Source of the DNA: Candidatus Dojkabacteria bacterium | GTDB taxonomy: Bacteria; Patescibacteriota; Dojkabacteria; B142; OLB20 | Assembly (NCBI GenBank): GCA_035444565.1 | Contig: DAOMOX010000001.1 | Span: forward strand, 130,335 to 194,334 | Direction: 5' to 3' | DNA length: 64,000 nt | In this document: positions 32,262 through 61,371 of the stretch, in pieces | How positions within the stretch are numbered: position 1 is the first letter of the stretch | Layout: each line of letters starts with the position of its first letter | Program-made: the position numbers and the translations under genes | Notes under the pieces: model-generated | The model's database searches: none | What the model saw: only the letters and a program-made list of their open reading frames with translations | Told to the model about the DNA's origin: nothing

Positions 32262-32849
32262 TTAATAAGCAAGCATAACAGAAGTTGCAACATTCTCTCT
32301 TAATTCCTTATCGTACTCATATGTTATTTTTACTTCTAACTTTCCCTCCTCTAATTGCGTTGCGTAGTAGTTATTAAATTTATCTCGAGAAACCGATTCA
32401 TCCGTGAATTGGCCAGTTTTAACCCTAAAGATGGTTATTTCATTGATGGGCATCTTATTTAATTTCTCAGCATTATTTTCAAGAATAGGTCCGGAAATTG
32501 GAAAATCACAATCTTTTACAGCGACATCTTCACAGGCACCATTTTCCTGTGCAATATGTGTAGCATCAAATCCATCATAGTAACTCACGTAATCGTATTC
32601 GATATAATCACTGCCAATCTCGGTAAGAATTGCATATATATGTGAATCTTCGGGTTCACTTTTCATAGTTTCAACTAATTGATTAACCGCGTATACCTCT
32701 TGTTTCAGCATGTCTACTTCCATATTCAATCTCGTGTATTGCCGAACGAAATAAAAACAATTGAAATATACCAATAGAAAAGATATATACATAAACAATT
32801 TCCATCCGATAAAATATTTCCAGTTGAGAACTCTCTTTTCAATTTTCAT
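32262..32849 (-). CDS. Hypothetical membrane-anchored protein.
   Basis: N-terminal TM. No recognised domain. Confidence 0.35.
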   Translation of the reverse strand: MKIEKRVLNWKYFIGWKLFMYISFLLVYFNCFYFVRQYTRLNMEVDMLKQEVYAVNQLVETMKSEPEDSHIYAILTEIGSDYIEYDYVSYYDGFDATHIAQENGACEDVAVKDCDFPISGPILENNAEKLNKMPINEITIFRVKTGQFTDESVSRDKFNNYYATQLEEGKLEVKITYEYDKELRENVATSVMLAY

Positions 32850-33261
32850 GGTATTTCATTAATAAAGTATTACTTTATAGTAGACGTAGTGGTCAGAGGA
32901 ATCAATCAATTCGTATCAAAGTCGAGGTTATTATTAGTTTAATTTATTTGATGGAAGAGATAGTATATAAAAGAATATAGTAGAAACTTAAATTTTTACA
33001 AAATTCAACAGATGGAAGGTGCGCCAAGAATAGTCATCATAGAGAATCCAAAAGAGAAGTATGGTGTAGTAGGTGAAGAAATAGCACCGGGAATATATGT
33101 TGTAGTTCCAGTTGATGATCCTTATGCACAAGAAGGCACTTATGATTATCAAGGCGCCGAAAAAAGTCACCATTGGGTACATGAGCCAGAACAGGAGGAT
33201 CAATTTCCAACAGCAAATCCTACTTAAGGAAAATATTTCAACTATATAAAAAACCAATAAA

Positions 33262-33334
33262 TGCGCTGAGCAAGATTCGAACTTGCAACCTACTGCTTAG
33301 AAGGCAGTTGCTCTATCCATTGAGCTATCAGCGC
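33262..33334 (-). tRNA. tRNA-Arg (anticodon UCU). 73 nt, no encoded CCA.
   Basis: Clean cloverleaf: GCGCTGA/TCAGCGC acceptor, GCTC/GAGC D-stem, ACTGC-CTTCTAA-GCAGT anticodon arm, GCAAG-TTCGAAT-CTTGC T-arm. Confidence 0.85.
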
Positions 33335-33351
33335 ATTTATTGCTTTTGTAT

Positions 33352-33504
33352 TACCTACTGCTTATCCCGCTCATTGTATGCGAACTTAGTGAGCATTACA
33401 ATGACGTGGATCCCAATCCTTCACAAATCATATCTACGGGATCCTCGATGATTTATAGACTCGCTCCGCTTCGTCCAAATCATCGGGAGAAGGCAGTTGC
33501 TCTA
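33352..33504 (-). other. Pseudo-copy of the tRNA-Arg D-stem/anticodon-arm/variable region, split by a ~124-nt structured insertion at the anticodon loop.
   Basis: GAGCAACTGCCTTCT (33488-33504) and AAGCAGTAGGT (33352-33364) match tRNA-Arg positions ~22-47 but are separated by an insert. No acceptor or T-arm. Confidence 0.4.
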
Positions 33505-33788
33505 ATCAACTAGAAAATCAGACTTTCATGAACATAGTGAAGTGAAAGGCTAGATTTTCTGTTGTCCCGTACGAACAAAGTGAGATACGGGACCTCTCTT
33601 TATCAGTATGCTATTTTCAAAACATCAGCATTATACCGCTGAATGCTCTCTATTATAATGTTTTTCCCTATTTTTTTCATCTTTTTTCACGGATTCTAAT
33701 ATTTTGCGTTAGAATCCAAAGTTGTCTAAGTGGACAAACAATATAATCACACCAATGCTCTACTCTTTATACATTTTATATAGAGCAT

Positions 33789-34451
33789 ATGAACAAAGCA
33801 CCAACCGAACTTGAAGTATTTATCCACGACATTGCAAGCCCACTTACGAATATTGGCATCAGTCTAGAGAATATGAAATCTCATATTTATACTAATCCTC
33901 GTAAACTCGAGAAGACAATAGTGGCAACACTTGACTCACTTGAATATTTGCACTCAATATCTAGAATCCATAATTCCTATTTTTTTGATAATAAAGACAC
34001 CAAGTATTCGGTAGAAGAGTTAATACGTAAAATTGTTACAAATAAATTCGGCTTCATAATCGACCAAAACAAAATATTGCTTTTGTATGACGTACAAGAG
34101 GAGCTTACAATTAATTATGACAAACTATTATTGAACAGAGTAATTACTAATATCATCTCGAACTCAATTGATGCGCTTTTAGAGAAAACACCTCATAAAC
34201 CGAAAAAAATAAAAATTTCAATAAAGAACTTACAAAACAAACTGGTGATTACAATCTTGGACAATGGAATTGGAGTTGACAATAATTTAATTAAAGAAAT
34301 TTTTAATTATGGATATTCAGAAAAAGACTCCCATTTTGGTATTGGTCTCCCAGTAACTAAAGATATTATTGAAAATAGGTTTGGGGGAGTGCTGAAGTTT
34401 CAATCCCTAAGCGGTATAGGGACCTTAGTAAAAATTATACTTCCAATTTAA
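33789..34451 (+). CDS. Soluble histidine-kinase-like protein (HisKA-like H-box plus HATPase_c).
   Basis: FIHDIASPLTNI H-box. ITNIISNSIDAL, ILDNGIGVD and GIGLPVTKDII ATPase boxes. Confidence 0.6.
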   Translation: MNKAPTELEVFIHDIASPLTNIGISLENMKSHIYTNPRKLEKTIVATLDSLEYLHSISRIHNSYFFDNKDTKYSVEELIRKIVTNKFGFIIDQNKILLLYDVQEELTINYDKLLLNRVITNIISNSIDALLEKTPHKPKKIKISIKNLQNKLVITILDNGIGVDNNLIKEIFNYGYSEKDSHFGIGLPVTKDIIENRFGGVLKFQSLSGIGTLVKIILPI

Positions 34452-43084: not shown

Positions 43085-43353
43085 AAGATGAATTTTATCA
43101 ATATTAATTGTATTATTAGTTATATTTAATAATATTATGGATAATACTGGTCAAATCCTCCTCATCACTTTGGTCACCGCGATTGGAAGTAGCATTACTA
43201 CATATTTATATCGCAAGAGAAAGATAGCAAAAAAGGACTATAGTTTGTCAGATCATGCCAAGACTAAAAGACCCGACATAACTATCGGGATGTAAACGAT
43301 GATTGGAGTTTTTTAATAAGCAAGTTATAATTGCCTCATGATTTATTTCTGAC

Positions 43354-60154: not shown

Positions 60155-60237
60155 ATAGATTAGATTAATTAGTGGGAAAGTATAGCATGTGATGAGAAGG
60201 GGTGGAATGTTTCCGATTTAGTCACAAAGCGGGACCG

Positions 60238-60489
60238 ACGGGACTCGAACCCGCAACCTCACGCGCTTGCCCCGTAAGAATTTATTCTGTACGGGGTGAC
60301 AGATAAATAATGTTTACAGGAAAAATGAGAATACGGACAACCATAGACAAAAAAGCGGGACCGACGGGACTCGAACCCGCAACCTCACGCGCTTGCCCCG
60401 TAAGAATTTATTCTGTACGGGGTGACAGATAAATAATGTTTACAGGAAAAATGAGAATACGGACAACCATAGACAAAAAAGCGGGACCG
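60238..60489 (-). repeat. Two tandem 126-nt units. Each is an 89-nt spacer carrying a CCCCGTA...TACGGGG hairpin plus a 37-nt copy of the tRNA-Asp 3' half.
   Basis: 60238-60363 and 60364-60489 are identical. The 37-nt segment equals tRNA-Asp positions 38-74. In tRNA sense the spacer ends CTGTCA-[31-nt hairpin]-C then GCGTG. Confidence 0.8.
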
Positions 60490-60490
60490 A

Positions 60491-60564
60491 CGGGACTCGA
60501 ACCCGCAACCTCACGCGTGACAGGCGTGTGCTCTAACCAGTTGAGCTACAATCCCGCTTTTTTG
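60491..60564 (-). tRNA. tRNA-Asp (anticodon GUC). 74 nt including discriminator G, no encoded CCA.
   Basis: GGGATTG/CGGTCCC acceptor, TA, GCTC-AACTGGTTA-GAGC, CACGC-CTGTCAC-GCGTG, GCGGG-TTCGAGT-CCCGT. Confidence 0.85.
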
Positions 60565-60796
60565 TCTATTCAATTATGAAGAACAATAAAGTCTAATACC
60601 CAAATAAACGAGAGCTATTTATCCTCCGTAGTTTTACGAAGGAGGACAATCCCGCTTTGTGACTATTGACGACTTGTATAGAACGGATAGATTATAGCAG
60701 AATTTGGAGAAAAATATTAAGAGATTGAGAAATTTAGAAACGAAGTAACTCTTTAAGAGAACCTAAGAAATTATTTCTAATTATTAAAATTATTAA

Positions 60797-61164
60797 TGCC
60801 GCGGAGAGCCCAGGATTTAATCCGGGGGAATCCCGTACAAACTTCATTTCACTCGTTTTACGGGACAAGCCTCAAAGGGATTTCTCTCCCGCTAAACTTC
60901 GTTAGCGGGACAAGCCACCACCACCTTTGAAGAGATTAACTAAGTTGCTGCTGCGGAGAGGAGTTTTACTAGTAGTTGATGAACGTAGTGAATCTACTAC
61001 TAGTTATCCCTGCATATATCAGATTCCATTTAACTTTGTCAGGGAGAACCTCAAGTATCCTTAGCTAGTTGAATGATAAATGCTGCGGAGAGCCCCGGAT
61101 CTAATCCGGGGGAACCTCAATCATAATGTTCCCACCACCACCTCAATAAAGATAAACAAGTTGC
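60797..61164 (-). repeat. Three degenerate tandem tRNA-Leu-derived units (pseudo-tRNA fragments) with hairpin insertions.
   Basis: Each unit begins (T)TGCTGC(T)GCGGAGAG, like the tRNA-Leu 3' end. They retain AAGGGATTTCTC and CCACCACCACCT blocks homologous to the intact gene. Confidence 0.5.
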
Positions 61165-61248
61165 TGCTGAGGACAGGAGTTGAACCTGCAAGGGATTTCT
61201 CCCACTACCACCTCAAGGTAGCGTGTCTACCAATTTCACCACCCCAGC
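61165..61248 (-). tRNA. tRNA-Leu (anticodon GAG), class II with a long variable arm. 84 nt.
   Basis: GCTGGGGTGGTGAAATTGGTAGACACGCTACCTTGAGGTGGTAG...GCAGGTTCAACTCCTGTCCTCAGCA is close to E. coli tRNA-Leu architecture. Confidence 0.85.
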
Positions 61249-61371
61249 AGCAATTTGTTTATCCTATCGATTTTATTTACCCTTTGTAGCTTAAACGAAG
61301 AAAGGCCACCACAGCATTTAGTGCTTTAGACAACACCTATTTTATCAAATAATGTGGGAATTCGTTACTAT

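Follow-up and report, generated by a model that had tools for sequence, protein, structure and literature searches.

A stretch of 64,000 nucleotides (nt) from a Candidatus Dojkabacteria genome, in the following called the window, contains an intact gene for tRNA-Arg(UCU) that is preceded by pieces of a second copy of itself, and these pieces are separated by a structured insert of 124 nt. Named homologues of a glycosyltransferase of 562 amino acids encoded in the window likewise assign it to Candidatus Dojkabacteria (WS6; Patescibacteria/CPR, Candidate Phyla Radiation). The locus raises the question of what a tRNA gene broken in this way represents, and what the insert is. It is most likely that positions 33353-33611 are the fossil of an older tRNA-Arg(UCU) gene, and that the current gene lies inside it, at position 47/48 of the variable loop. 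According to this reading, to which we assign a probability of about 0.5, the older gene was disabled and/or colonised by lineage-specific hairpin modules, and the live gene is a cassette that recombined into the old unit. All tRNA genes of the window, and the parts of them described below, lie on the minus strand.

The intact gene was called by ARAGORN (33261-33335) and by Rfam (RF00005, 33262-33334, 77.4 bits), in agreement with an earlier note made from the sequence of the window. Its acceptor stem is GCGCTGA/TCAGCGC, termed allele A1, and the CCA end is not encoded. Upstream of the gene a repeat search revealed two exact direct repeats, one of 17 nt (33299-33315 and 33488-33504, tRNA positions 20-36) and one of 12 nt (33288-33299 and 33353-33364, tRNA positions 36-47). 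When searched by blastn-short in the 64 kb, the 17-mer had an E-value of 2e-4 and the 12-mer of 0.2. Chance can be excluded because the two repeats are collinear, abut in the tRNA with an overlap of one nucleotide (T36) and recur in relatives. The old-gene pieces are TAGAGCAACTGCCTTCT (33488-33504, positions 20-36) and AAGCAGTAGGT (33353-33363, positions 37-47). The earlier note had placed a partial second copy 5' of the tRNA; the copy was confirmed, but it covers positions 20-47 and not ~22-47. It lacks both the T arm and the 3' acceptor strand, and it has the attributes of a tRNA remnant (pseudogene), with partial identity to its cognate tRNA, an incomplete cloverleaf, no call by tRNA finders and an intact cognate gene present. 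A simple tandem duplication of the locus was rejected, as the "units" of 65 nt and 189 nt that it implies are unlike each other outside the tRNA pieces.

Syntenic loci were retrieved via the adjacent histidine kinase gene and represent six other Dojkabacteria lineages beside the window. The gene order RimK-CSD-SRAP-small open reading frame (ORF)-tRNA-Arg-histidine kinase-response regulator was conserved, with the kinase proteins ~55-63% identical across lineages, while the tRNA region itself was found to be a mosaic of two main tRNA-Arg alleles, A1 and A2 (acceptor GCGCGGG). In L024, a metagenome-assembled genome (MAG) with flanks 95% identical to the window, the promoter and a leader are followed by a complete 5' half (positions 1-36) and, after the insert, by positions 37-47; the intact gene comes next, with a second leader in front of it. 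In L005-8 an outer A1 gene is present in four pieces: positions 1-14, a D-loop insert of ~90 nt, 18-36, an insert of 123 nt and 36-47 are followed by an entire A2 tRNA, flanked by a leader and a trailer of its own, and only then by A1 positions 60-73. In L009-11, A2 positions 1-16, a D-loop insert and positions 17-27 precede a complete A1 gene. L017-19 carry block B (the D-region insert of the old gene, 33508-33593 in the window), the old arm, a diverged insert of 114 nt and old-gene sequence running into the T loop, followed by a third allele without a leader. L020/21 have two tandem units, each consisting of a 5' half, the insert, positions 37-47 and a leader, followed by an A2 gene, and a single recombinant unit is present in L022, which is of the same species. 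In L012/13/23 the A2 gene is clean, and A1 positions 60-73 lie ~140 nt downstream of it; L014 has a clean A1 gene.

Since the relatives show a fuller version of the old gene, the "pseudo arm" of the window can be identified as the central part of an older tRNA-Arg gene that was once complete. The earlier note was right that the copy lacks a T arm and a 3' acceptor strand, but it is not an isolated arm, and it encloses the current gene. The 18-nt leader of the current gene, AATACAAAAGCAATAAAT (33335-33352), has its 5' edge at the junction with old-gene position 47, and this junction is homologous to the leader/position-47 edge in L024, L005 and L020. The nesting junction lies after position 27 in L009 and in the T loop in L017, as opposed to 47/48 in the window, L005 and L020, and alleles A1 and A2 exchange inner and outer roles between L005 and L009. 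The differing junctions and the exchange of roles argue that nesting occurred several times, and the allele pattern suggests that tRNA cassettes have moved between lineages. The acceptor halves of the inner genes are matched pairs. An "X-element", composed of insert, positions 37-47, leader and positions 1-36 and inserting at 36/37, was considered and rejected, because the inner 5' halves would then mismatch the resident 3' acceptor strands, as an A1 5' half would against the A2 3' end in L020.

Block B consists of a long hairpin, AACAGAAAATCTAG...CTGATTTTCTAGTT, with a TCACTATGTTC motif at its tip (33508-33563), and of the hairpin GTCCCGTA...TACGGGAC with the loop TCTCACTTTGTTCG (33564-33593), which is conserved in L020 and is the CCCGTA...TACGGG hairpin that the earlier note had pointed out. 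The block is 89% identical to the window in L020 and 75% in L017. It is missing from L024; although the window and L024 represent nearly one species, 33505-33611 is there exchanged for a leader and tRNA positions 1-19. The site of 33598-33611 corresponds to this leader with positions 1-19, and by our own reading of a weak similarity (GCATACTGATAAAG compared to GCGCTGATAGCT) 33598-33611 may be the decayed 5' end of the old gene.

A number of further observations were made on the loci of the relatives. The number of insert units varies between samples of one species, with two units in L020 and L021 and one recombinant unit in L022. Short-read contigs of L001, L006-8 and L014-19 stop inside repeated tRNA segments, and tRNA loci of this kind are systematically under-assembled in short reads. 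The old A1 3' remnants of L005 (3352-3430) and L012 (3294-3350) have ~25 nt of upstream sequence, TCGGCAAnATnTGGCTnAGGAGTCTTGCTCAGCGCA, in common, and this region can be read as a T arm whose loop is enlarged, possibly by a fourth insertion. Extra genes were found beside tRNA loci in L027 (5121-7127), L028 (4830-6914), the window (32262-32849) and L005 (1736-3060). They encode hypothetical proteins of 668, 417, 201 and 195 amino acids and a polysaccharide deacetylase, and none of these shows a recombinase signature. Variable gene content, too, has its hot spots at the tRNA loci.

The 124-nt insert is located in the anticodon loop of the old gene (33364-33487). Its bounds can equally be given as 33365-33488, depending on the assignment of an ambiguous T, and the site 36/37 is equivalent to 35/36; its length and its position after nucleotide 36 were correctly described before. 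As neither a T arm nor a 3' acceptor strand follows it, the element is not being spliced to give a tRNA. Folding, which had been suggested as a check, gave for the insert with the duplicated arm a junction of three hairpins stacked on the duplicated anticodon stem (-48.5 kcal/mol, z = -2.85), and 2 of 200 shuffled sequences folded equally well. Hairpin 1 (33446-33485) contains the 9-bp helix CGATGATTT/AAATCATCG, present as an inverted repeat as had been noticed earlier, and has a variable tip, GGACGAAGCGGAGCGAGTC; its pair 26-55 is changed from AU to UA in L017. Hairpin 2 (33408-33444, GGATCCCG...TGGGATCC), recognized from both fold and alignment, has a large variable loop, and one of its pairs is G.U in the window and G-C in relatives. 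Hairpin 3 (33371-33404) has a stem of 8 bp, a bulged A, a stem of 3 bp and a loop of 11 nt, TCACTAAGTTC, and belongs to a hairpin family that we term R1. The termini of the insert do pair, as the earlier note proposed, but as UCCCG/CGGGA and not as ATCCCG...CGGGAT; the ATCCCG is the 5' strand of the middle hairpin.

Rfam 15, searched at gathering and at permissive thresholds over the Arg and the Leu/Asp regions, matched none of its described RNA families but tRNA; what else appeared scored far below threshold and lay across the tRNA. A coding function of the insert (plus-strand ORF 33340-33513) was ruled out by non-triplet indels among the versions of the insert. CUGAUGA/CGAUGA in hairpin 1 could be read as a hammerhead or a C/D box, a reading that has no model support and no K-turn. 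Hairpin 3 (33371-33404) doubles as a sigma-70-like promoter, TTGTAA-17-TACAAT, aimed at the intact tRNA gene. A promoter as the reason for the conservation of hairpin 3 is possible for Arg, but the Leu homologues described below keep the loop and not the hexamers, and the explanation was rejected.

Neither the insert nor block B has a second copy within the window. An invariant 21-mer of the insert was found at one locus among 185,579 species genomes and at one in the metagenome set, both syntenic to the window, and in none of the viral contigs; the sole species-level genome was the MAG DTUPAT2 (L024). The insert as a whole is a single-copy sequence tied to a syntenic site and is therefore not MITE-like (MITE, miniature inverted-repeat transposable element), in disagreement with the multi-copy behavior envisaged in the earlier note. 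Its termini pair (UCCCG/CGGGA) and hairpins lie near both ends; there is no target-site duplication beyond the 1-nt ambiguity, and no transposase is known. For lack of multiple copies, the insert does not represent a dispersed MITE or miniature element of the IS200-IS605 type.

Seven distinct versions of the insert were recovered, all at 36/37, with lengths of 124 nt in the window, 123 nt in L005 and 114 nt in L017. Overall they are 74-99% identical, with ~90% identity among the window, L005 and L020 lineages and 74% to L017. By comparison, the kinase and regulator genes next to the locus have reached saturation at their four-fold degenerate sites when lineages are compared (~30-33% identical). 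Substitutions within the insert were not uniformly distributed. In the two apical regions 28 of 35 columns were variable, compared to 13 of 90 elsewhere (p = 7e-12), and when L017 was left out the corresponding numbers were 15 of 35 and 4 of 90 (p = 7e-7). The earlier note took the locus for the footprint of an element or intron. This agrees with the insert being discrete, structured, conserved and always located in the anticodon loop of a non-functional tRNA-Arg copy, but "footprint" is too weak a term for an intact element evolving under constraint. The relatives carry the arm together with the insert, and the structure is conserved among them, so that none of the three refutations foreseen in the earlier note came about; as suggested earlier, the insert may recognize the anticodon stem-loop.

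Breakpoints of the old copies were mapped by exact match of the tRNA alleles onto each Arg locus. They were all found in unpaired positions: 14, 16/17, 18, 19 and 20 belong to the D loop, 36 to the anticodon loop, 47 to the variable loop and 60 to the T loop. A single break, after position 27, is borderline. By our own reading, breaks in tRNA-Asp and tRNA-Leu copies (9/10, 25/26 and 37/38) agree with this pattern. As ~42% of tRNA positions are unpaired, eight independent hits would give p ~1e-3, which is a rough value since the events are not all independent.

A layout like that of the nested Arg genes recurs at the tRNA-Asp and tRNA-Leu loci of the window. The tRNA-Asp(GUC) locus (60221-60663) is a nested array of an old 5' piece, an intact gene, two 126-nt units and an old trailer. 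An outer leader, GTCACAAA, with tRNA-Asp positions 1-10 (60646-60663) is followed by a hairpin (60623-60645) and by TAGCTC. The intact tRNA-Asp (60481-60557) has its own complementary leader and trailer. The two 126-nt units are exact copies in which a trailer precedes the anticodon loop CTGTCA, a hairpin of 31 nt at 37/38 and tRNA positions 38-76, and the locus is closed by an outer trailer, TTTGTGAC (60221-60228), complementary to the outer leader. Downstream of the intact tRNA-Leu(GAG) are three partial 3' copies of tRNA-Leu (61081-61146, 60946-61055 and 60797-60931; anticodons GAG, GAG and CAA), each starting in the anticodon loop. The copy at 60946-61055 carries a two-hairpin insert of ~80 nt homologous to hairpins 2-3 of the Arg insert, and another copy carries two CTTGTCCCG...CGGGA hairpins (60888-60909 and 60832-60864). 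The suggestion that related elements exist elsewhere thus holds in part, for hairpin modules in the loops of old tRNA-Leu and tRNA-Asp pieces. In the 64 kb there were eight matches to the pattern CCCG-N-CGGG, compared to 1.5 expected by chance. Those of the tRNA-locus type were all at tRNA loci; the exception, 43272-43289, is of another type and probably due to chance. The Leu insert recurs in L026 (twice) and L027, and the more distant relatives L028 and L029 have clean Leu and Asp genes.

The second hairpin of the Leu insert has the same 11-nt loop, TCAYTnnGTTC, as Arg hairpin 3, on a different stem. An R1 hairpin is defined by a stem of 8-9 bp, a bulge, a stem of 3 bp and this loop, and Arg hairpin 3 has all of these; under the R1 covariance model it scores 51.4 bits (E = 3e-12, by construction), and its homologue is at 60968-61004. 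All four Arg and Leu insert sequences fold into the same two-hairpin module. In a joint alignment of the Arg and Leu hairpins, four of seven stem pairs were changed on both sides and 96.8% of the cells were paired, compared to 24-73% in slid controls, and none of 500 shuffles reached the observed value. The model found new members solely beside tRNA-Asp in relatives, on the opposite strand (L027, E = 4e-4 and 0.013; L026, a non-significant E = 0.17; all E-values are rough), and nothing else significant in the rest of the window and the loci. The R1 loop motif is present in both hairpins of block B, yet these score E = 2-4 with R1, and membership of block B in the family is suggestive only. A DNA-uptake sequence was rejected as an explanation of the loop motif, since the motif is not dispersed. 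3' of tRNA-Asp in L027 (7290-7580) and L026 (5990-6060) we observed arrays of short decayed 3' pieces ending in ...CCGCCA, each followed by a hairpin with GAACnnAGTGA, the reverse complement of the R1 loop motif.

A sigma-70-like promoter, ATGAAA-17-TATAAT (33652-33680, minus strand), lies in a block conserved in all lineages, and from its position it would drive the old-gene pieces, the insert and the tRNA as a single transcript. The acceptor stem of the live tRNA is extended to ~24 bp by an inverted repeat of leader and trailer (33246-33351, arms 33246-33269 and 33328-33351; 24 nt, 92% complementary), which appears in the minimum free energy (MFE) fold. The inner gene of L005 has a compensating leader/trailer pair, AATGAAT/ATTCATT. 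All three intact tRNA genes of the window were seen to have complementary leaders and trailers that make the acceptor stem longer by ~8-17 bp, the leaders being A-rich and the trailers U-rich (33246-33269/33328-33351, 60558-60569/60469-60480 and the flanks of 61162-61251). Such helices may serve as a processing stem, as a terminator or as an insulator against mispairing with relic pieces.

For the fossil gene with a nested live gene the following course of events is proposed. Hairpin elements would insert in a structure-directed manner into single-stranded loops of folded tRNA DNA or RNA, and intact tRNA cassettes would be exchanged among related strains and recombine into the old gene. In the window, the live gene with its own 18-nt leader would have been placed within the old gene at 47/48 by DNA recombination, and it would still use the old promoter and be cut from a long structured leader. 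The old gene retains positions 20-36 and 37-47 and carries block B in its D region and the 124-nt element at 36/37. This element is built of hairpin modules belonging to a small family, peculiar to the clade, that resides in the loops of disabled Arg and Leu copies and is inverted beside tRNA-Asp in relatives. The relic may persist because recombination of its 17-nt and 12-nt repeats with the live gene would delete part of the latter, and its helices may be kept so that tRNA-identical segments pair together, sparing the downstream tRNA from misfolding. The long leader/trailer helix of the live tRNA, and similar helices at tRNA-Asp and tRNA-Leu, fit such a protection from mispairing. In a gene-dense genome the old unit would also be nearly the only neutral transcribed place for a new copy.

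Several observations weigh against a plain fossil. A dead relic would be expected to drift, but the conservation of most of the insert and of block B comes close to that of the tRNA, which fits function or recent horizontal spread better. The conserved sequence of the 11-nt loop is left unexplained by safe folding, and old genes that remained functional, with introns that could be removed, would equally have their breakpoints in loops only. Covariation inside the Arg insert is thin, with one compensatory pair, and the one-sided stem changes outside L017, four in number, all retain G.U on the tRNA-sense strand (p ~0.06). R1 members occur in both orientations relative to the neighboring tRNA, which is awkward for a purely RNA-level role, and no enzyme for the insertion was identified among the window proteins or the ORFs beside the tRNA loci of relatives. 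The comparison includes about seven lineages in all, and the contigs of many relatives end within repeats. Because the strength of conservation, the loop sequence and the confinement of breaks to loops are not explained, two alternatives stay alive, an intron-like element and a leader RNA.

The first of these is that the anticodon-loop and D-loop inserts, and those of Leu and Asp, belong to a new bacterial tRNA intron or intron-like mobile RNA, present or recent, that enters exposed loops of tRNA genes and leaves the precursor; the old genes would then have been functional and later replaced by intron-less copies. We regard this as unlikely, yet a good deal speaks for it. The site is precise and invariant in the seven sequence variants, the Asp hairpin at 37/38 occupies the canonical intron position, all breakpoints are in unpaired positions and constraint is strong outside the apical regions. 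At least three independent nesting junctions would suggest a long-lived insert-bearing gene, and a homologous module is present in two different tRNA genes, as for transposing archaeal tRNA introns (PMC10714607). However, each insert-bearing copy is incomplete or encloses an intact copy, and a complete gene bearing the insert was never found as the sole copy. The 47/48 junction common to the window, L005 and L020 implies that the pseudogene state is old while the insert stayed conserved, some hairpins of the family are inverted relative to the tRNA, and a bacterial splicing enzyme for such an element is not known. Nor is there a signature of group I, group II or bulge-helix-bulge (BHB) introns, and the insert ends in A or T and not in G.

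Two known intron types that the earlier note wished to have checked were excluded. No intron family of Rfam matched at the gathering threshold, nor at E <= 10 in a permissive search of 33150-33850. A group I intron is rejected by this lack of a model match, by the length of 124 nt, by the truncated host gene and by an insert that never ends in G; U36 is indeed the last nucleotide of the 5' exon, but the insert itself finishes with ...GCGGGAT or ...GCGGGA, and every relative has an intact second tRNA-Arg copy. A BHB intron is rejected because, in MFE and alignment folds, a continuous helix with a 1x1 mismatch and without 3-nt bulges runs from the anticodon stem into the insert. No EndA splicing endonuclease or ligase was found among the ~50 window proteins, which represent 64 kb of the genome and have little bearing on the rest.

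The second alternative, which we rank after the intron-like element and also hold to be doubtful, is that the old-gene pieces, block B and the insert have been recruited to a function, either as a structured 5' leader of the tRNA-Arg transcript or as a small RNA derived from this leader. Such an RNA might act in processing, in stability or in protein binding at the conserved 11-nt loop, and would be kept by purifying selection. The location between a conserved promoter and the tRNA agrees with this, and so does the fold, since the whole 401 nt form independent domains (z = -5.4). Variable tips together with an invariant junction and hairpin 3 are the pattern of a functional RNA, and the one-sided stem changes that keep G.U on the sense strand point the same way. 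Against it, the parts are dispensable. The insert is missing in L009, L012/13/23 and L014, block B is missing in L024, and L005 has another D-loop insert. The number of units varies within a species (L020 compared to L022), there is no Rfam match, and related hairpins are also found 3' of tRNAs and on the opposite strand.

That the locus is the decayed scar of an island or prophage integrated by an integrase, with the tRNA-Arg anticodon loop as attB and the 124 nt as a leftover, is improbable. It is true that tRNA genes are classical integration sites and that partial tRNA genes are a known and usual by-product of element integration (PMC9897764). The downstream 3' fragments from the anticodon or T loop at Leu, Asp and the Arg locus of L012 resemble attR remnants, and relatives have extra genes between tRNA-Leu and tRNA-Asp. 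The Arg fragment, however, is internal (20-47), lies upstream of the gene by 18 nt and is short of the 3' end, and around the insert there is no core direct repeat, just the 1-nt ambiguity. The matched acceptor halves of the inner genes imply that whole genes and not 3' halves were replaced, and the supposed remnant is conserved and structured, not arbitrary. The window is ordinary chromosome (G+C ~35%) encoding nucleotide metabolism, glycosyltransferases, transporters and two-component systems, and no integrase, transposase, reverse transcriptase or RNA ligase was found among its ~50 predicted proteins. When the hypothetical ORFs beside the tRNA loci of the window and the relatives were scanned with Pfam and PHROGs, no recombinase was revealed, and no integrase was found among these neighboring ORFs. 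A phage origin was likewise rejected, as only the tRNA itself matched phage records and the viral scans were empty.

Chance similarity or an assembly artefact from repeated tRNA sequence is very improbable: the loci are difficult to assemble, many contigs that relatives have from short reads stop within tRNA repeats, and a collapsed repeat could account for how L020 and L022 differ, but the same architecture is present in independent assemblies of differing project and source (GTDB MAG L024; ENA L005, L020 and L021; Logan L006-8 and L017-19) that differ by lineage-specific substitutions, and the exact collinear matches of 17 and 12 nt are beyond chance.

Two further features were noted in the vicinity. 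Between the tRNA and the histidine kinase gene, where the promoters diverge, 33691-33717 form a perfect 9-bp palindrome, GGATTCTAA-N9-TTAGAATCC, whose left half, TTGGATTnnAACGCAAA, is kept in all lineages; it may be an operator for the neighboring OmpR-type regulator. A direct repeat of 21 nt (19 of 21 identical) connects 33338-33358, at the relic/leader junction, with 34075-34095 within the histidine kinase ORF. It could be due to chance in AT-rich sequence or be the trace of an illegitimate join behind the junction.

Several known systems resemble these loci in part. Partial tRNA genes left by integrative elements were reportedly described by Reiter in 1989 and by Williams in 2002. Such remnants share with the loci studied here a partial copy beside an intact gene, breaks in the anticodon or T loop and tRNA loci that are recombination hot spots. 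They differ in that the locus of the window has neither an island nor an integrase, that its fragment is internal and upstream and not a displaced 3' end, and that whole new genes are nested within a few hundred nt together with conserved structured insertions. Rickettsia palindromic elements and the REP (repetitive extragenic palindromic) and BIME (bacterial interspersed mosaic element) sequences are small palindromic repeats that tolerate insertion into genes. Like the Dojkabacteria hairpins they are short, hairpin-forming, non-coding and lineage-specific, occur in either orientation and sometimes lie in RNA genes. Those elements have many dispersed copies and conserved stems, whereas the Dojkabacteria hairpins have few copies, at tRNA loci only, with a conserved loop and covarying stems, and the 124-nt composite is single-copy.

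Bacterial group I introns occupy the anticodon loops of cyanobacterial tRNA-Leu(UAA), Agrobacterium tRNA-Arg(CCU) and Azoarcus tRNA-Ile. They are at least ~200 nt long, have a P3-P9 core, end in G and reside in complete host genes. The bacterial host, the anticodon-loop site and an arginine tRNA among the hosts are common to both cases, but the present insert is 124 nt long, has no Rfam match, ends in A or T and lies in a truncated gene. Randau and Soll are said to have proposed that interruptions of tRNA genes interact with mobile DNA. In archaea, tRNA genes may have multiple loop-located introns or be split or tri-split, and introns of Thermoproteales transpose (Fujishima, 2010; PMC10714607; PMC4090602). 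The likeness consists of several insertions per gene, unpaired sites including non-canonical ones, and related inserts across different tRNA genes. Archaeal interrupted genes are functional, and the splicing endonuclease cuts them at BHB motifs. For the present locus, whose host is a bacterium, no such motif can be drawn, and the interrupted copies are incomplete and backed by an intact one. For CPR bacteria, Brown in 2015 reportedly described introns and insertions in 16S and 23S rRNA genes. Group I and II introns in CPR rRNA genes are mentioned in PMC10714607, where Tsurumaki (2022) is cited for CPR rRNA-gene introns. Those also interrupt structural RNA genes within the same superphylum, but they are reported to be introns of group I or II that lie in functional rRNA genes and often carry homing endonucleases, and the present insert is small and ORF-less, belongs to neither intron class and is found in a tRNA pseudogene. 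In the literature on tRNA introns or insertions in CPR bacteria and Dojkabacteria we found no prior description of nested tRNA genes or of the hairpin family.

Partial tRNA genes are usually dismissed as integration scars. Here they form an ordered and recurrent architecture, in a bacterial clade with tiny, gene-dense genomes in which the persistence of junk DNA is unexpected. The R1 hairpin is a concrete new RNA or DNA motif that can be searched for, and the loci are a warning that tRNA annotation and short-read assembly in CPR genomes fail at exactly these repeats. We tentatively consider it possible that Dojkabacteria harbor a new class of small, ORF-less, structure-targeting elements that invade the D, anticodon, variable and T loops of tRNA genes. 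By analogy with the transposing archaeal tRNA introns, hairpin modules with the conserved 11-nt loop might act on folded single-stranded DNA or RNA, and since their targets would be essential single-copy genes, each invasion would select for survivors with a recombined intact tRNA cassette. If this is true, repeated rounds would lead to tRNA loci resembling Russian dolls, an arms race recorded in tRNA genes. Inserts that are mobile, or that were once spliced, would be the first bacterial parallel to the multi-intron and split tRNA genes of archaea and would offer a testable case in which selfish elements and essential RNA genes are in conflict. Even if the inserts are no more than fossils, a frequent exchange of tRNA cassettes between CPR lineages is recorded in the loci.

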